Positions 1,593 to 9,483 of a DNA stretch of 32,000 nt are shown here, piece after piece. Each line of letters starts with the position of its first letter. The stretch's first letter is position 1. The position numbers and the translations under genes are program-made. The notes beneath the pieces were generated by a model, which was not told the DNA's origin, ran no database searches, and worked only from the letters and a program-made list of their open reading frames with translations. Source of the DNA: Promethearchaeota archaeon (GTDB lineage: Archaea; Asgardarchaeota; Hermodarchaeia; Hermodarchaeales; Hermodarchaeaceae); the NCBI GenBank assembly GCA_048938295.1, contig JBHLMI010000014.1, forward strand, positions 1-32,000, in the 5' to 3' direction.

Positions 1593-4500
1593 ATGAGGTT
1601 GGAGGGTATGTTGAGTAAAAAAAAGGTCTTATCAGGTATAGGAGTGTTTCTCATTGCCAGTTTATGCCTTCCATTGATAATGGCACCAATTCTCTCCGAA
1701 GTAACTTCAAGTACGATTGAGGGAAGCTTTCCTACTATTCCGTCTGATCTTCTTTCTAAGGAATTCGATATTGCGGAACTCAGAGCGAGTGGGAAATATT
1801 TGAATCCAAATGCAGCAAATTGGGTGCCGTTCATTCCTGGTGCACTGCCCGGAACAGCTCCTGATGTCTATGTCCAGTCTTCGGACTATACACGGATTGT
1901 TGTCGCAACCAGGTTTTATGGTATGTGGTCAGGGAATCGAACGATTGGGACTGATGTTTATTCCGTACATGCTATTCCAAGTTGTGGACATTTATCTGAT
2001 GTTGGTTCCCCCGAATTACCTGTCGTTACTAAATTTGTTGAAGTTCCTCCCAATGTTGATGTGACTGTGGAAGTACTCCATCGGGTCACTCGAAGATTTT
2101 CCGGATGCAAAGTTACGCCATTCATCGGTTTCTATCCCAGCGCGACAGGATCTTCAAATACAACTAGCCCCTGGTTCCCACCTCCTTCAAACTTTACTGA
2201 CCCTCCAATTAACTCAACCGTTTATTCTTTCAATCGCTTCATTCCCCTGGACAATGTCTGGTTAAGTGGTGGACTCAAAGCTCATCCCATTTACCTTCGA
2301 GGGCGAAGAATAGTTGGCATAAACATCGTACCCATCCTATTCCACCCACAAAATTCAGAATTAGAAGCTCATTCTTCCCTAACTATTGCTTTGAATTATG
2401 ACAAGCAGGCATCTATTCCGGTTATCGAAGAGCGATTTGTTTCTCGAGTCTTTGAAGAGTTATTCCAATCGTTTCTACTCAATTATCATTCCCGAGCTCG
2501 AAGTTCAGCTTCAGCTCAACTGACCTCATCAAAGATGGCTATGACCGATGAGGGAGTAGATTATCTCATTATTACCGACGAAGCATTTATTGACGAATTA
2601 CAACCACTAATTAGTTGGAAGATGCGAAAAGGGCTTCAGACCCGATGTATTACTGTTCAACAAATCGTCAGAGATGATAACCAGAACCCCGATACGATCA
2701 GCCCCATAGAGAAACGGCGACTAGTTACAGAGTATATTAACGACACCTATTGGGGCGAAACACCTGCCCCAAGTTATGTGCTTTTCGTTGGTGATGACGA
2801 ACATATTGTTCCTCACTATGAATATCAGCACTACGCGGCCGAACATGCAGGTGCATTTGTTGGATCAGACTTAGGCTACTTTACTGTCGACGGCGATGAC
2901 TATATCCCAGATATTCTTTACGGAAGATTTTCAGTTGACACGCCTCAAGAAACCCGAAATCTTGTTAGCAAGACCCTCGATTATGAAAAAGATCCGCCTG
3001 CACGAAGCTCTCATTTCTATGACTACATTACGCCAGTCGCCTATTCATTCATCACAGATCCAGCACGTTCATTTTTCCTTTCGGCAAACAATGTTAGTGA
3101 ACATCTCAGTAATTTTTATGAGATAGATACAGTTTATAGGTCTTTTCCAAACTTTGATGTCGAAGGTACGAAGATAGACATCCGTTCAGCCTTTAATGAC
3201 GGACGGCTCATGATTTATTATGTCGGGCATGGAGCCTCTGAGAATTTTCAAAAATACGTAACTCGTGAAACAATGGATGGTTGGTCTAATCCAATCTTTA
3301 CGACCCGCGATTTCACTGGTTTAGATAACGACGGGATGTATCCTTTAGTAGTTAGCATAGCATGTTGTACAGGATGGTTCGATGGAAACACCGATTGTCT
3401 GGGTGCGAAGCAGGGATTTGAATACCTCTTGGAAGGGGAGTATGAAAGCTTCTGTGAGAATATAACAAGATTAGGTGGAAGTGGGGCGATTGCGGCTATT
3501 GGAGCCACTCGGATGGCAGAGTTTTGGGCTGGTGATGCATTATTTGACGGGATGATAGATTGCATGTGGCCAGATTATCGAGCAGCTTCAGCCTTTGGCG
3601 TCACGCCAACCCTAGGGCAGATGTTGTGGTATGGAAAGATGTTTATGGCTACATATTTGGGATTAGATTCCCGGAGAACTGAAATTACCTATCACATGTA
3701 TCATTTATTTGGTGATCCTGAACTCAAACTGTGGAGAGATGCACCGGGTACACTGACCGTAGAACATCCAGAAGGAATAGGTTCAATGGGAGAACAATCA
3801 TTCTACGTGAAGGTTACCAATGCCTCCTCAGGACAACCAGTTGAATCAGCAACAGTTTCTCTCCAAATGGATGATTTGATCGTTAAATTTGATTCGAATT
3901 CATATGGCTATGCATATTGTTACATTACGCCATCACAATACGGCGGAGTGATGAACATCACCGTAACTCATTCAGATTTCAAACCCTACCTGAACGAAAT
4001 GACCGTAACTCCACATGGTGGATATCTAGAGCTCTCTCTTAATGAAGCAGATGCTAATTATGATCTTACTCTGACAGGCTACGAGTTTGATTATGGTGCA
4101 GTCGATATTGATTTTGGTGGCCATGAATTAAGATGCTATGTTGATGTTGCCACCCAAGGAGAGTTTGTAAATTCATTTGATGTCTTCTCTGGGGTTGAAA
4201 GTCCCGTGAATATTGTTGCAAATCAATTTGGAGGTAACAAGTTAGCAGTAACCCTTTTTGGTCGATTGGATGATCATGCGGATCCGTATATTTATTCTCA
4301 ATGGGATGAAGACACCTGGGCATTGTATTCAGAGTCAAAAAGTGGGCATCCACGGTGGGATAACCCAGATATTGAATTAAGATATCTTCTCCCAGTAGGA
4401 GGGTATGAAGTTCCTCCCGAAACGACACATACTCTTCACGTCACAGTTCACAATAAGGGACATGCAACAGCACGAGGAGTCACCGTTAGCCTGTATGAAG

Positions 4501-5165
4501 GAGAGTGGGGAATAGGACAGCAATCCTGGAGAAGAATCAAGGAATGGATCAATATCCAAATCCCAGGAAAGAGGAGTCACACCCTTTCGACGACTTGGAG
4601 TACCCTAGTTGCCGGTAGTTGGTGTTTCAGAGCTGAAATAAGCTATGACCAGGATGAAAACATTGATAATAACATCGGATTAGAAAACTTGGCAGTTCAA
4701 ACAGTTACTACGCCTGGAACATACCATTTCAAATTTCCATTTTCTATATACAATCCGAATGCAGAGAAAATTAGCTTTGATTCAGTAAACTTGCTGGAGA
4801 GGGAACTGCGTGAAAATCAGCTTGTTCAGATTGAAAGAGAGGCTTCTTATGTATTCAGTCCTCCGCACCTCGAATTAGCAAACTTATCAATAGTAATTCC
4901 AGCTGAAGTTCCATATGGTGAAACTCAAACGTATGTAGTTACTGCAACAAGTGACGGCAGAGTTTATGGAGGTATTGAAGTTATCATCCACAAATTCCCC
5001 ATCGAAATCCCAAGGATATCAGACAAATGGCTTTTAGGTTTCCTCGTCTTACTTATTCTCATAATAATTGTTATTATCCTATCCTATTTTGTGATTCGAA
5101 GTCTAAAGTCAGACAATCAAAGTTCTGATAAACAAAATCAAAATACTGGTACATCTGACCCGTGA
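1593..5165 (+). CDS. Gingipain-like C25 cysteine peptidase: signal/anchor, C25 propeptide, catalytic domain, Ig-like/CARDB domains, C-terminal TM
   Basis: Propeptide GSPELPVVTKFVEVP; YLIITDEAF..LISWKMRKG; YVLFVGD; SDLGY...IPDILYGRF; catalytic His in YVGHG and Cys in SIACCTGWFD; LFGDP; CARDB-like VTVHNKG...DENIDNN; C-terminal WLLGFLVLLILIIIVIILSYFVI. Confidence 0.9.
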   Translation: MRLEGMLSKKKVLSGIGVFLIASLCLPLIMAPILSEVTSSTIEGSFPTIPSDLLSKEFDIAELRASGKYLNPNAANWVPFIPGALPGTAPDVYVQSSDYTRIVVATRFYGMWSGNRTIGTDVYSVHAIPSCGHLSDVGSPELPVVTKFVEVPPNVDVTVEVLHRVTRRFSGCKVTPFIGFYPSATGSSNTTSPWFPPPSNFTDPPINSTVYSFNRFIPLDNVWLSGGLKAHPIYLRGRRIVGINIVPILFHPQNSELEAHSSLTIALNYDKQASIPVIEERFVSRVFEELFQSFLLNYHSRARSSASAQLTSSKMAMTDEGVDYLIITDEAFIDELQPLISWKMRKGLQTRCITVQQIVRDDNQNPDTISPIEKRRLVTEYINDTYWGETPAPSYVLFVGDDEHIVPHYEYQHYAAEHAGAFVGSDLGYFTVDGDDYIPDILYGRFSVDTPQETRNLVSKTLDYEKDPPARSSHFYDYITPVAYSFITDPARSFFLSANNVSEHLSNFYEIDTVYRSFPNFDVEGTKIDIRSAFNDGRLMIYYVGHGASENFQKYVTRETMDGWSNPIFTTRDFTGLDNDGMYPLVVSIACCTGWFDGNTDCLGAKQGFEYLLEGEYESFCENITRLGGSGAIAAIGATRMAEFWAGDALFDGMIDCMWPDYRAASAFGVTPTLGQMLWYGKMFMATYLGLDSRRTEITYHMYHLFGDPELKLWRDAPGTLTVEHPEGIGSMGEQSFYVKVTNASSGQPVESATVSLQMDDLIVKFDSNSYGYAYCYITPSQYGGVMNITVTHSDFKPYLNEMTVTPHGGYLELSLNEADANYDLTLTGYEFDYGAVDIDFGGHELRCYVDVATQGEFVNSFDVFSGVESPVNIVANQFGGNKLAVTLFGRLDDHADPYIYSQWDEDTWALYSESKSGHPRWDNPDIELRYLLPVGGYEVPPETTHTLHVTVHNKGHATARGVTVSLYEGEWGIGQQSWRRIKEWINIQIPGKRSHTLSTTWSTLVAGSWCFRAEISYDQDENIDNNIGLENLAVQTVTTPGTYHFKFPFSIYNPNAEKISFDSVNLLERELRENQLVQIEREASYVFSPPHLELANLSIVIPAEVPYGETQTYVVTATSDGRVYGGIEVIIHKFPIEIPRISDKWLLGFLVLLILIIIVIILSYFVIRSLKSDNQSSDKQNQNTGTSDP

Positions 5166-5375: not shown

Positions 5376-5420
5376 AACACCCATCTGCAAGATTGTCTAG
5401 TGTAGTTTGGTGTGGTGAGA

Positions 5421-6392
5421 ATGGACGAAATTGACAAGCGGCTCATATTCGAACTTCTCGTTGATTATCGGGCTTCATATCAGTCCATGGCAAAGAAACT
5501 GGACTTATCTGTGAATGCGGTGAAAAAACGGTTTGAAAGGTTGAGAAGTGTGGGCATCATTCGTGGTGGGCTTTTAGCGCCTGTGCCTAGTATGATAGGG
5601 AGTGAGGATTGGGTGGCGATTTTACGCATGGAGGGATTGAGTACCTCAGAAGAACAGTTGGCTAGAGTGGGAGCACACCGGTTGGTTCGGGCAGGGAGCA
5701 TTTTAACCGATGGAAGTATCCTATGCTTTGGAATTGTTGGAGGTGCCAAGGACCTTCAGGAGATTGGGAGCTATTTGCGACAGGTTCCTGGAGTAGAATC
5801 CGTAGAATTCCACACTATTTTGAATGAACCAGGAAAGAGGTGTGAGTTGACCATGGCTGATTTGAAAGTCCTTCGCTGTTTACGCCAGGAGCCACGAATT
5901 CCAATCAGTGAGATTGCCCAACTAACTGGGTTGACACCGCGTCGCATCCGGAAAATACTTATAAATTTACTTGGTGAAAACGGTGCTGAGATAACTTTTC
6001 ATTTGAATTGGGAGCCGCGAGGTGTGGCGCATCCCAATGAGGTGTGTTTTCGTCTGAGTGTTTGGTGGAATTTGAATGCCGGCGGATATACAGCATTCAT
6101 TATTAAGATTCGGCATGCAGAAGGTACTGAAGCCCGTAGTCGAATCGTCAATTGGCTGAAATGCACATATCCGTTTAAGTTCTGGTATGCCTATGCGTCG
6201 GCTTTCGAACCTGTGATTTTTTGTATATTCATGGTTGAGCATTTACATGAATCGATTGACATCGCTAGCGCTGTGACACAATTACCGGAAGCGGTTGATG
6301 TGTATCCGATTTTTGGATATCCCACGAAAGTCTTTCGAAGCCAAATAGATGATTATTTTGAAGCACTCTTCAAACAGCTAGAAGCGGAATGA
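5421..6392 (+). CDS. Lrp/AsnC-type transcriptional regulator with two winged HTH domains, paralog 1
   Basis: MDEIDKRLIFEL..YRASYQSMAKKLDLSVNAVKKR (AsnC-type HTH) and a second HTH DLKVLRCLRQEPRIPISEIAQLTGLTPRRIRK. Start taken at ATG 5421 (alternative GTG 5412). Confidence 0.85.
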   Translation: MDEIDKRLIFELLVDYRASYQSMAKKLDLSVNAVKKRFERLRSVGIIRGGLLAPVPSMIGSEDWVAILRMEGLSTSEEQLARVGAHRLVRAGSILTDGSILCFGIVGGAKDLQEIGSYLRQVPGVESVEFHTILNEPGKRCELTMADLKVLRCLRQEPRIPISEIAQLTGLTPRRIRKILINLLGENGAEITFHLNWEPRGVAHPNEVCFRLSVWWNLNAGGYTAFIIKIRHAEGTEARSRIVNWLKCTYPFKFWYAYASAFEPVIFCIFMVEHLHESIDIASAVTQLPEAVDVYPIFGYPTKVFRSQIDDYFEALFKQLEAE

Positions 6393-6555: not shown

Positions 6556-6602
6556 CATCCCTATCAGATCAATGTAAACCAGAGTAGGTAGGTTTGGGAA
6601 GT

Positions 6603-7589
6603 ATGGACGAAATTGACAAGAACATCATCTTCGAGTTATCTGTCAATTATCGTGTCTCATACCAGACGATTGCCAAGAAATACAATCTTTCGGTGAATGC
6701 GGTGAAAAAACGCATTCAGAAACTGAAAAGTGACGGGATTATTCGTGGAGGGTGGTTGTTTCCGATGAATGCTATGCTGGGGATGGAAAATTGGGTGGCA
6801 CTTGTAAGAACGGAGGATCCGATTCCCTCTGATGCTTTCTTAGACGGTCTTGGAGCGCACAGGTCGATTGATTCCGCCAGTATCCTTACAGATGGAAGTA
6901 TTCTCTGCTTCGGACATTATGCTGGTGCCAAAGGTCTTGAAGAACTTGGTACGTTCTTGCGTCAAACTCCAGGCGTTACATCCGTGGACTTTCACACAAT
7001 CCTTGCTGAGCCGGGTAAGCGTCGGGAACTATCCCTATCAGATTTGAAGGTATTACGCTGTTTACGCCAGGATCCCCGAATGTCGATCAGTAATATATCC
7101 CAGAATACTCGACTTACGCCCCGCCGAATCCGAAAAATAATCCAAGAATTGATTGATGATAAGGGCTCTGAACCGGAACTCTATCTAAACTGGAACTCAC
7201 GAGGAGGAAGCCGCCCCGATCAAGTCTCCTTTAAGGTCAGTATAAACTGGAATTTGAATGCTGGAGGCCATACGACTTTTGTCATTATCATCCGCCACGA
7301 AGAAGGCGCAGAATTTCGATCCAAGATCATAAATGTGCTTAAGGAGAAATATCCGTTCAAATTCTGGTATTCGTATGCTTCAGCCTTTGAACCGGTTATT
7401 TTCTGTGTCTTTGTAGTGGAGCACATGCGCGAAGCAGGAGACATTATTGAGACATTACGACAAACCCCTGAGATCCTCTCAGCGAATGCGATTTATGGAT
7501 ACCCGAGTCGACGGTATCACAGTGTTGTTGATGAGTATTTTGAAGAACTCTTCAAACGCCTAGAGGACTATGTAAAAAAGGCGGATTAA
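6603..7589 (+). CDS. Lrp/AsnC-type double-wHTH transcriptional regulator, paralog 2
   Basis: Colinear with paralog 1: 36/50 identical in the first 50 aa, identical LSVNAVKKR helix, shared WNLNAGG and YASAFEPVIFC. Start ATG 6603 (alternative TTG 6594). Confidence 0.85.
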   Translation: MDEIDKNIIFELSVNYRVSYQTIAKKYNLSVNAVKKRIQKLKSDGIIRGGWLFPMNAMLGMENWVALVRTEDPIPSDAFLDGLGAHRSIDSASILTDGSILCFGHYAGAKGLEELGTFLRQTPGVTSVDFHTILAEPGKRRELSLSDLKVLRCLRQDPRMSISNISQNTRLTPRRIRKIIQELIDDKGSEPELYLNWNSRGGSRPDQVSFKVSINWNLNAGGHTTFVIIIRHEEGAEFRSKIINVLKEKYPFKFWYSYASAFEPVIFCVFVVEHMREAGDIIETLRQTPEILSANAIYGYPSRRYHSVVDEYFEELFKRLEDYVKKAD

Positions 7590-7606
7590 AGCGCTCAAGG
7601 AAAAAC

Positions 7607-7741
7607 ATGAGAGATGCCGTCCTCATCGCAGATGTGTTCATCTTCGACTGGTGGGTTCTCATTGACTACCAGGCCGGTGCAATCTTTCTGTTCATCGGTT
7701 ATTTCATGATGGCTCTCCATATACTACGAGGTAAGAAGTAG
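7607..7741 (+). CDS. Putative 44-aa hydrophobic microprotein (not in the ORF track)
   Basis: MRDAVLIADVFIFDWWVLIDYQAGAIFLFIGYFMMALHILRGKK*; AAGGA upstream; starts 17 nt after the regulator stop; basic C-terminus; followed by a hairpin and T-tract. Confidence 0.45.
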   Translation: MRDAVLIADVFIFDWWVLIDYQAGAIFLFIGYFMMALHILRGKK

Positions 7742-7767
7742 CTAATCCTAGAAGAGATTTTATTTTC

Positions 7768-7808
7768 AGAGTGTAGGGAAATTCTATACTCTCCCTATCT
7801 TCTTTTTT
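7768..7808 (+). terminator. Hairpin plus U-tract terminator candidate
   Basis: AGAGTGTAG (7768-7776) pairs with CTATACTCT (7784-7792), one G-U pair; T6 at 7803-7808. Confidence 0.45.
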
Positions 7809-7839
7809 CGACTCAATTAACATGCAAATTAAAAAATTT

Positions 7840-7966
7840 AGCCGGATCTTCAAGGTTCCTTCCCCTCCATTTTGGCACTTCCCGGTCCAAGAAAAATGGG
7901 TGGCAATGGACCTTTTTTAGGACAACGGATTCGGAGTTTACGTTCAAGTTCCTTGAAGACCCGGCT
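7840..7966. repeat. 16-bp inverted repeat enclosing 95 nt
   Basis: AGCCGGATCTTCAAGG (7840-7855) and CCTTGAAGACCCGGCT (7951-7966) are 15/16 complementary. No target-site duplication seen. Confidence 0.6.
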
Positions 7967-8025
7967 GGTCAGTTTCCACGGTCCGTGTCCCTAGTGTCAA
8001 TGTCGTTCCCTAGTAGTAAGTGTGA

Positions 8026-8169
8026 TTAGCGTCGTGATGTGACGATTGCAAAGTTGATTCGATCGCGGGGAGTGCCTCGGGGGTTCTTTGCCCCTGTCAC
8101 AGCGCGTTCTGCGACAGGCATCTCAGTAATTTTCTTCTTTGTGTGTCCGGTTTCTTTCTTATCGACCAT
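8026..8169 (-). CDS. Basic microprotein B, 47 aa, unknown family (not in the ORF track)
   Basis: MVDKKETGHTKKKITEMPVAERAVTGAKNPRGTPRDRINFAIVTSRR*; SD GGAGGT just upstream of the ATG; clear paralog of 8520-8657. Confidence 0.75.
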   Translation of the reverse strand: MVDKKETGHTKKKITEMPVAERAVTGAKNPRGTPRDRINFAIVTSRR

Positions 8170-8227
8170 TTTCTATCAACCTCCTGACCAAGCAGGACAA
8201 TGATGTATAACCCTGAAATTGCCTATT

Positions 8228-8306
8228 ATTCGATGGGAGCTCGTCAGTGCAAAAATTCGATAAAAAATGATAGAGCGAGCCAACTTTTGCACTCCATGGT
8301 GCAAAA
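8228..8306 (-). promoter_or_regulatory. Upstream module of microprotein B
   Basis: 8228-8253 is 19/26 identical to 8742-8767; GTGCAAAA (8247-8254)-N30-TTTTGCAC (8285-8292); a third site GTGCAAAA at 8299-8306. Confidence 0.55.
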
Positions 8307-8519
8307 ATAGAAAAACAATGTTTTTGAAGAAGGGGGGAACCGGGCCCGTACAAACTCCAAACGGAAGGAACCAAGAAGTGTGGACATCCGCTGCCGGAAC
8401 GCTGCTATGCCGATCCTCCGTCAACGGATGGAGAGGTCGTCGGAGGTTCTGCAGGCCCGATCTCGTCGCTGCGAGTTGGATCTGGTGATCGTGTGTTCAC
8501 CATCTGAATTCCTCACAGC

Positions 8520-8657
8520 TTAGCGTTTGCTTAGCGCCAGCATGACTGCATACCGAGTGCGAGGCTTCGCAGTCGGGTGGGGGTTGCGGCAGCCTGCAAC
8601 AAGGCGCTCACAAGCTGACATATCGGCAAGTTTTTTGTGTTTGTAGGATTTGGCCAT
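8520..8657 (-). CDS. Basic microprotein A, 45 aa, unknown family (not in the ORF track)
   Basis: MAKSYKHKKLADMSACERLVAGCRNPHPTAKPRTRYAVMLALSKR*; SD GGAGGA upstream; paralog of 8026-8169. Confidence 0.75.
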   Translation of the reverse strand: MAKSYKHKKLADMSACERLVAGCRNPHPTAKPRTRYAVMLALSKR

Positions 8658-8685
8658 CTCAAAGTCCTCCAATTGTGTTTGTCAC

Positions 8686-8709
8686 CGGGATCCCTGGGAG
8701 GGAACCCCG
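8686..8709 (-). promoter_or_regulatory. GC-rich hairpin in the leader of microprotein A
   Basis: Minus-strand CGGGGTTCCCTCCCAGGGATCCCG gives a 10-bp stem (one G-U, one bulge) with a CCC loop, about 15 nt upstream of the SD. Confidence 0.45.
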
Positions 8710-8741
8710 TTGCAATGAGATATGGGTAAGGATTTGATATG

Positions 8742-8858
8742 AATTGATGGGAACAAATTAGTGCAAATGTCTGCGGTTCAAGCTCAGAAATCAAGAAATT
8801 GTGAACCATTGTATGCAAAATATTGTACTAAAATCCGTCATTTCTCCGTTTTTTGCAC
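8742..8858 (-). promoter_or_regulatory. Upstream module of microprotein A
   Basis: 8742-8767 is homologous to 8228-8253; ATGCAAAA (8813-8820)-N30-TTTTGCAC (8851-8858). Confidence 0.55.
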
Positions 8859-8960
8859 CAGATTGGCATGATTTCTGTTTTGTAGAACCCATTTGAGTGA
8901 TTGCAAACGAGTTATTTGAAAGTTTTTGGGGAGTTTTTCTCATTATCAACCAGCGGTCTT

Positions 8961-9483
8961 ATGTTAAAGCGAGATGATGAACCGATCGAGGGCTTCCGAG
9001 CTTTACCCCCGTTTCCGGTAATATTAGTCACCGTGCAAGAGAACGTAATGACAGCGGCAGCGTTCCATTTCTATTCATTCAGCCCACTTTGCGTGACGGT
9101 AGGAATTCGTCCACAGACCCACACCTTTAGCCTACTCCCTCAGGTTAAGGAATTCGGGGTTAATATTCCTACGACAACCCAGCTAGAACAGGTGCATGTC
9201 TGTAGGTCTGTGTCTGCCCGGATTGAAGATAAATTTGAGAAAACCGGATTGACCAAGATGAAAGGCAAAGTTATCGATACCGTTCTCGTGGCTGAGTGCC
9301 CTGTGAATTTGGAGTGTCGTGTCGTGCACGAAGTAGCGTTTGAAGGGAAGTCACCGATGGTTTGTTGGTGAGGTCATTGCCGTTCATGTAGCCGAGGATT
9401 ATCAGCGGGATCAGGCCCTTACGTATTGGATGCGGGAGTACCGCCGTGTTGGCGAAGTTTTAGTCACTGTTAAAGGGCTGTAA
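8961..9483 (+). pseudogene. Flavin reductase-like (DIM6/NTAB) protein with a 1-bp frameshift
   Basis: PPFPVILVT, VGIRP, EFGVNIP, DKFEKTGLT and ECPVNLECRV are in frame 1. The conserved C-terminus SHRWFVGEVIAVH...YRRVGEVL* continues in the +1 frame after GGG 9345-9347 to TAA 9481-9483. Confidence 0.8.

Follow-up and report, generated by a model that had tools for sequence, protein, structure and literature searches.

A family of small, strongly basic proteins encoded beside structured RNAs in one family of Asgard archaea

CsrA/RsmA is a small RNA-binding regulator with a structured decoy RNA of the CsrB type, rich in GGA and Shine–Dalgarno (SD)-like motifs; it is bacterial and is not encoded beside its decoy RNA. 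HU binds nucleic acid through its β-arm, and the proline at the tip of the arm intercalates into DNA. An archaeal operator of the Lrp type has been described for Ss-LrpB, whose box has the consensus 5′-TTGCAAAATTTGCAA-3′; an Lrp dimer binds this 15-bp palindrome, TTGCA-W5-TGCAA (PMC1802622). Here we set beside these systems a locus that encodes two microproteins, termed A and B, on the minus strand of a 32,000-nucleotide (nt) stretch of DNA from a Promethearchaeota archaeon (GenBank assembly GCA_048938295.1, contig JBHLMI010000014.1, positions 1 to 32,000; hereafter the window), an Asgard archaeon of the GTDB family Hermodarchaeaceae. Both belong to a protein family under strong purifying selection that was found within this one taxonomic family, and its genes carry conserved promoters and conserved RNA structures.

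Microprotein A (8520–8657, minus strand) has 45 amino acids (aa) plus a stop codon, an isoelectric point (pI) of 10.5 and a net charge of +9, and microprotein B (8026–8169, minus strand) has 47 aa plus a stop codon, a pI of 11.0 and a net charge of +7. A sequence-only reading of this DNA had pointed out the two open reading frames (ORFs) and their strong SDs, and both are present where it placed them, with GGAGGA before A (8665–8670, minus strand, within an invariant ACACAATTGGAGG block) and GGAGGT before B (8179–8184, minus strand). Its counts were likewise reproduced: the 19-residue cores of A and B align without gaps at 9/19 identities, lysine and arginine together number 11 in A and 12 in B (aspartate and glutamate 2 and 5), and A contains two cysteines (Cys16 and Cys23) and B none. 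The proposed paralogy was borne out by BLASTP (E 7e-9 in a single pairwise comparison), and this similarity lies at the level of the protein and does not reflect a DNA repeat, since the sole repeated DNA at the locus is a 30-nt block upstream of the genes. The description of the microproteins as hidden is right in that neither is in the ORF track of the window, but the NCBI pipeline does call their orthologues in sister metagenome-assembled genomes (MAGs) as adjacent ‘hypothetical proteins’. We judge it very nearly certain that A and B are genuine protein-coding genes and that their family has not been described before.

A profile built from A and B alone recovered two further paralogues, C and D, in the same 2.52-Mb genome (contigs C57 and C65; E about 1e-7), and a sensitive scan of all small frames gave exactly four family members in this genome. 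The same profile recovered dozens of orthologues from related genomes. When 301 genomes were sampled from the phylum, matches were detected in 17 of the 18 genomes of the window's GTDB family, at two to six per genome (14/14 genomes of the window's own genus and 3/4 of the sister genus); the approximately 280 phylum genomes outside this family yielded only marginal matches, these with stop codons, and those in genome G034 (E about 1e-3, stop codons inside) were not accepted as members. A profile search against 1.84 billion cluster representatives found 15 true clusters, all of 40–77 aa, together with two repeat-protein artefacts, and a deeper search of 5.8 billion proteins with a 46-sequence profile found 42 clusters; every sequence name given for them is ‘hypothetical protein’, and the MAGs concerned carry the labels Thor-, Prometh-, Hod- or Hermodarchaeota.

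The family falls into four subtypes, A to D, with four to five members per genome, and the tandem arrangement of A and B is present in at least nine genomes. All share a lysine-rich N-terminus, a core of the form ER-x3-G-x-[RK]-N-P and a short hydrophobic C-terminal segment with a final S-R-R, to which subtypes C and D add a GSKW-type tail. Positions E17, R18, N25 and P26 are invariant, G22, S43 and R44 are more than 90% conserved, and the proteins are strongly basic throughout (pI 10.5–11.9, net charge +7 to +11). An SD (GGAGG or GGTGA) stands 6–10 nt before the start codon in all 38 copies examined. The earlier argument that identical residues written in different synonymous codons betray selection on the protein is upheld by the pooled Nei–Gojobori ratios of non-synonymous to synonymous change (dN/dS), which are 0.11 for A and 0.15 for B (proportion of synonymous differences, pS, 0.53–0.66), and the same is seen in C (0.13) and D (0.10), with pS of 0.49–0.66 across the four subtypes and synonymous sites near saturation in all of them. 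Amino-acid conservation is spread over the whole length of the peptide, with no division into leader and core. A to D are thus protein-coding genes under strong purifying selection.

By contrast, the suggestion that A and B might form a pair with and without cysteine did not survive comparison with the orthologues, in which T, S, V, I or G stands in the place of A's Cys16 and no CxxC pair occurs. Only the Cys of GCRNP is conserved (in three subtypes), Ala taking its position in subtype B and some A-like members, and with this single conserved Cys and no conserved CxxC-type Zn ligands the microproteins differ from the Zn-dependent C+/C− pairs (L31, L36, S14).

A further small ORF, ‘E’, lies 25–40 nt behind subtype D (in the window's own genome at about 120–205 of contig C65, minus strand; L004:120-205), with orthologues at loci L030, L032, L033 and L034. 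It is 27 aa long in 5/5 genomes and has its own GGTGAT SD; its N-terminus is variable and its C-terminus conserved (dN/dS 0.45), and of the family's features it retains only the C-terminal hydrophobic stretch and [ST]RR. ORF E may be a truncated family member.

No assignment to a known family had been possible from the sequence alone, and this still holds after searches of Pfam, NCBIfam, PHROGs, PADLOC, PDB and ESM Atlas and a fold search, all without a significant match. Pfam and NCBIfam gave zero families at E up to 10, ribosomal protein families included; the best PHROGs match (E 0.12) was to a family of unknown function, PADLOC gave none, nothing usable came from a feature search of the ESM Atlas, and no ribosomal chain was among the matches of the PDB sequence search. 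In the literature, we found no account of the protein family or of the RNA element 3′ of its genes. AlphaFold2 (AF2), run with the family alignment, returned models with a predicted local distance difference test (pLDDT) score of 61.7 for A and 60.5 for B; at this confidence of about 60, both begin with a short helix, continue with another over the E-R segment and, after a loop at G-x-[RK]-N-P, finish in a C-terminal helix, a common pattern that fits a protein that folds on binding. A Foldseek search of the PDB with the A model gave no match at E ≤0.001, an uninformative result given the low confidence of the model, and a prediction of A and B as a complex (score 0.00, chain pLDDT about 40) bears neither way on binding.

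The best PDB profile matches were three HU proteins, aligned without gaps at the arm sequence ERAAR-x-GRNP but non-significant (E 0.64–1.0). Alignment by hhalign to an HU alignment (Escherichia coli hupA plus four Asgard HU genes) gave the same register, with family positions 16–30 on HU 50–64, at a probability of 0.3% and E 0.2. The family's E-R-A-x-x-G-x-R-N-P is thereby in register with the HU arm ...ERAAR-x-GRNP-x-TG, the motif R-x-x-R-x-G-R-N-P-x-T-G of HU/IHF is partly present, although AF2 places a helix there at pLDDT about 60, and both kinds of protein are small, basic and of the abundant type. The microproteins are nevertheless half the length of HU, lack its α-helical dimerisation body and are predicted to be helical. 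A six-frame genome search with PF00216 matched none of the four microprotein genes at E up to 1, and membership of the HU/IHF family was rejected on the grounds of this missing profile match, of length (40–50 aa versus about 90 aa) and of the absent N-terminal helical dimerisation body; we keep the resemblance solely as a weak lead at the level of a motif of about ten residues. HU genes of the bacterial type and of full length (PF00216, E 1e-28 to 1e-31) do occur elsewhere in the phylum (L038–L041, in genomes G034, G023, G012 and G180), and by Asgard family were found in 3/3 genomes of f12 and 1/7 of f13, with 0/14 in the window's genus. A 44-aa PF00216 match in genome G033, considered as an ‘arm-only’ intermediate, adjoins the end of a contig and probably represents a full-length HU that has been cut short.

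When the A–B locus was aligned from nine genomes, its flanks, which lie outside the coordinates of the sequence-only reading, proved to be conserved to the same degree as the coding sequences. Upstream of A lies a promoter-like block (TTTGCACT-N-GTTCCCATCAATTCATAT; 8738–8767, minus strand), the direct repeat D1, which is conserved across genomes and homologous to the block of B (8224–8254, minus strand), where the half-site TTTTGCACT is followed by the A/T-rich, TATA-like GCTCCCATCGAATAATA, invariant in the nine genomes. Farther upstream of B stands the palindrome TTGCAC-N6-GTGCAA (8287–8304), a candidate operator, which is also invariant in nine genomes and is unique in the genome. Subtypes A, B and C have in common GCTCCC[AG]T[CG] and then an A/T-rich TATA-like run about 60–85 nt before the ATG, and in all three the order is the same, the palindrome being farthest out, then the half-site and then the promoter block. 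The palindrome of subtype C reads TGAAC-N6-GTTCA and that of A is a hybrid of the B and C types; subtype D has a canonical TATA box in place of the shared block. As the module is common to A, B and C despite only 33–40% protein identity, it was inherited with the duplicates and kept. We find no sign of a wider regulon, because GCTCCC[AG]T[CG][AG]A, with 15 genome matches versus about 10 expected, stands in the right context only at the microprotein genes, to which the block is essentially private, and because the full palindrome occurs once in the genome.

The Ss-LrpB operator (PMC1802622) has exactly the half-sites of the B palindrome, TTGCA and TGCAA, and genes of the Lrp/AsnC type are conserved neighbours here. 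The arrangement differs in that 8 bp separate the half-sites of B (TTGCA-N8-TGCAA), against 5 in the Ss-LrpB box, with a centre that is not A+T-rich, and the local candidate regulators, double-helix-turn-helix (HTH) proteins of about 330 aa, depart from the archaeal Lrp type. The nearer of these (6594–7589, plus strand; Pfam HTH_24/HTH_AsnC-type) is the conserved neighbour and the candidate regulator of A and B, and a second, paralogous double-HTH Lrp/AsnC-type gene, also recognised by Pfam, lies at 5412–6392 (plus strand). Each of this tandem pair carries two AsnC-type HTH domains, with weak NirDL-like HTH matches. A regulator of this kind adjoins the unit formed by A, B and their RNA in at least seven genomes and in two orientations, despite an inversion. 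Four loci have it co-directional, with the microprotein first, the RNA next and the regulator last; in the window and at locus L027 it is convergent. In genome G110 (L017), regulator copies flank the microprotein locus on both sides. Autoregulation of the regulators through the same palindrome was considered and rejected, as only isolated TTTGCA half-sites lie upstream of them.

The transcripts of both genes are predicted to fold ahead of the start codon. A hairpin in the 5′ untranslated region (UTR) of A (8685–8709, minus strand), obtained with RNAalifold from ten genomes, has 6/8 pairs that covary on both sides and leaves the SD free. That of B (8175–8204, minus strand) has a 12-bp stem in which five pairs show compensatory double changes over nine genomes; its 3′ arm contains the SD, which is therefore occluded in the predicted structure.

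Conserved structure also follows the genes. Behind A, the region 8341–8501 (minus strand) comprises a hairpin directly after the stop codon (8487–8501) and a multi-branch domain (about 8341–8459) closed by a CGGGCC/GGCCCG stem; 10/40 predicted pairs of the region have compensatory changes, and the A–B spacer measures 350–358 nt in 8/9 genomes. An ATG with an SD-like GAGG just past the stop codon of A was examined as a possible gene and dismissed, the frames being of 18–59 aa with no conservation of amino acids and the region being accounted for by RNA structure. Behind B lies the 140-nt element that we call R1 (7828–7968, minus strand), which ends in a T-run. Its outer stem is of 13 bp, four of them covarying, and its core, GGUCC-AUUGCCACCCA-N7-GGACC-GGGAAGUGCC, is invariant, even beside a divergent A-like protein. 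A covariance model of R1 found one copy in this genome (E 7e-39). Run over 151 genomes from the phylum, it found 14, spread over 13 genomes that all belong to the window's taxonomic family. All 14 copies lie 70–220 nt downstream of a microprotein gene and none elsewhere, so that R1 is not a generic terminator. Rfam gave no match over the window at gathering scores and none over 7500–9000 at E up to 5.

SD-like, GGA-rich runs (AUGGAGGGGAAGG) lie in the 3′ half of R1 (window 7855–7875, minus strand), which is invariant, and GGAG is kept there even in divergent copies; these runs may be relevant to the binding of ribosomes or of a protein. An RNA element was also seen behind D/E (L030:1795-1960, L032:1789-1950, L033:1159-1306 and L034:1168-1308), preceded by a conserved C-box-like ACGATGATGTCAC; its outer stem (CGGGUCUUCCGG/CCGGAAGACCCG, with a T-run) and its AUCCGUUGUC block are those of the B element, but the interiors differ. 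Subtype C is followed by two simple conserved hairpins and a T-run (L003, L011, L013, L015 and L029), and downstream of these a conserved 341-aa dehydrogenase-like gene is found in most C loci.

Assembled contigs of one wetland metatranscriptome, 90–97% identical to the window, cover 8496–8622 (A), 8401–8525 (the 3′ domain of A), 8006–8170 (all of B) and 7893–7945 (the R1 core), which is consistent with transcription of A, B and their 3′ domains in relatives. Parts of 7600–9000 (promoters and flanks) were without such contigs, a gap that divergence or filtering could explain and that should not be read as silence.

The neighbours of the loci include genes for Lrp/AsnC regulators and for flavin reductase-like, dehydrogenase-like and approximately 425-aa proteins, and no modification enzyme, protease or exporter was found beside any of the four loci. 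In the window, the divergent upstream neighbour of A is a flavin-reductase-like gene (8901–9371, plus strand; Pfam Flavin_Reduct), and this synteny holds in five genomes. All copies of the family occupy fixed syntenic positions, which indicates that it is not mobile. On contig C57, the subtype C gene lies about 160 nt downstream of the end of a gene for a 425-aa TnpB/OrfB-like transposon protein (L003:24-1301, plus strand). This neighbour is seen beside C only in this genome, and similarity to the orthologous locus of G067 (L011) is lost upstream of −190, a pattern suggestive of a recent insertion-sequence (IS) insertion beside the C promoter. Elsewhere in the window, the 1190-aa protein encoded at 1593–5165 (plus strand) has a propeptide and a Peptidase_C25 domain of the gingipain type, unusual in an archaeon.

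We infer from these features that the family consists of nucleic-acid-binding microproteins made conditionally, and binding to nucleic acid or the ribosome, as put forward in the sequence-only reading, is still the best guess. The proteins would bind RNA or DNA, being largely unfolded alone and folding on binding, and would be produced only under particular conditions, each gene acting as an autonomous unit. Transcription would start from the conserved promoter behind the Lrp-type half-site palindrome, which is probably read by the neighbouring double-HTH Lrp/AsnC regulator; translation of B would be gated by the 5′ UTR hairpin that hides its SD; and the transcript would end in the conserved structured RNA domain, which might serve either as a cis control of the mRNA or as the RNA partner of the protein. 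We rate this model, taken as a whole, at a little short of an even chance. Several observations weigh against it. A basic composition alone is no proof of nucleic-acid binding, and the HU-arm match is non-significant in the PDB search (E 0.6–1.0) as in hhalign (0.3%), AF2 giving helices there and not a β-arm. The single palindrome match in the window is non-significant in itself, and the regulators' own upstream regions lack the palindrome. Subtype C has no conserved structure in its 5′ UTR and neither C nor D has an adjacent regulator, so that the regulatory part of the model is best supported for the A–B locus only. Finally, the RNA evidence is at the level of contigs from one study, is silent on strand, transcript ends and level, and could include DNA carry-over.

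A sharper version of this reading, which we regard as tentative at best, makes the microprotein and the RNA behind it a dedicated ribonucleoprotein (RNP) or an autoregulatory pair. The protein would bind the invariant loop of that RNA, either in feedback on its own mRNA or within a small RNP whose RNA is perhaps released from the 3′ UTR. The position of all 14 R1 matches directly behind microprotein genes speaks for such a pairing, as do the invariance of the R1 core even next to divergent A-like proteins, the related RNA behind D/E, the covarying 3′ domain that A has of its own and the strongly basic proteins; yet the two simple hairpins and T-run of subtype C mean that a complex RNA is not universal to the family, and co-location is equally expected of a purely cis-acting 3′ UTR or terminator. 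In its fullest form, which we likewise consider doubtful, this would amount to an Asgard-lineage-specific protein–RNA system of RNA-binding proteins of about 45 aa, each with a cognate RNA domain under Lrp-type and hairpin-gated control, a system that would resemble in function the small global RNA regulators that have decoy RNAs and be unrelated to any of them. The several GGA or GGAGG-like runs of R1 and the structure-gated SD of B recall CsrA/RsmA by functional analogy only, and the microproteins have no similarity to it in sequence or predicted fold. A special case of RNA binding, that the family comprises lineage-specific small ribosomal proteins or stress or hibernation factors, we hold to be unlikely. 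In length (40–50 aa), extreme basicity (pI >10) and strong SD the microproteins do resemble small basic ribosomal or ribosome-associated proteins such as bL36, eL39 and Sra, the depth of the RNA-library contigs is appreciable, and the translational gating of B is typical of ribosomal-protein-like control. No ribosomal family was matched by profile, however, nor any ribosomal chain of the PDB, four to six divergent paralogues at loci of their own with private operator-bearing promoters would be unusual for core ribosomal proteins, and the family is confined to one taxonomic family of archaea.

Binding to DNA through a mimic of the HU/IHF β-arm is another form that the preferred reading of nucleic-acid binding could take, the microproteins then being minor-groove binders and ‘arm-only’ chromatin or architectural proteins, possibly acting on their own operators. 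HU alone was matched by the PDB profile, ungapped and with hhalign agreeing in register, the invariant R, near-invariant G and invariant N-P coincide with the tip of the HU arm, and the window's genus has no HU of its own. These scores are nonetheless at the level of chance, PF00216 is blind to the genes, AF2 draws a helix over ER...G in both A and B, and the HU dimerisation body is wholly absent; we consider this reading quite improbable. It is very unlikely, in turn, that the microproteins are not nucleic-acid ligands but protein–protein modulators of the neighbouring Lrp/AsnC-type regulators: these genes do stay beside the A/B–RNA unit in at least seven genomes despite inversion, but the C and D/E loci have no such regulators, and net charges of +7 to +11 are more typical of nucleic-acid ligands. 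Least credible of all, in our view, is that the genes encode precursors of ribosomally synthesised and post-translationally modified peptides (RiPPs), precursor peptides having been one option of the sequence-only reading, or else leader peptides or upstream ORFs whose translation matters rather than their product. The small size, the one conserved Cys of three subtypes and, in some genomes, an order of microprotein, RNA with T-run and regulator that resembles a leader or attenuator could be taken in this sense, although control by read-through is impossible in this window, where the regulator is on the opposite strand. A full-length dN/dS of 0.10–0.15 represents far stronger constraint than leader peptides show, and precursor peptides are made unlikely by the conservation of the whole length, undivided into leader and core, and by the lack of a modification enzyme, protease or exporter at the four loci.

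The protein family and the RNA motif are new, and the biological kind to which they belong may turn out to be a familiar one, for example a small nucleic-acid binder. No part of archaeal genomes is charted as poorly as their small proteins, and eukaryotes have no closer known relatives than the Asgard archaea; in them, this family of several paralogues, with clear purifying selection and an unusually well-resolved regulatory anatomy, offers a well-delimited test case. If the pairing of protein and RNA is true, it would represent a new type of post-transcriptional regulator or RNP for archaea; if it is false, the locus would still provide a conserved RNA motif that is new, along with a candidate Lrp-type regulon, from a lineage that has not been cultivated.

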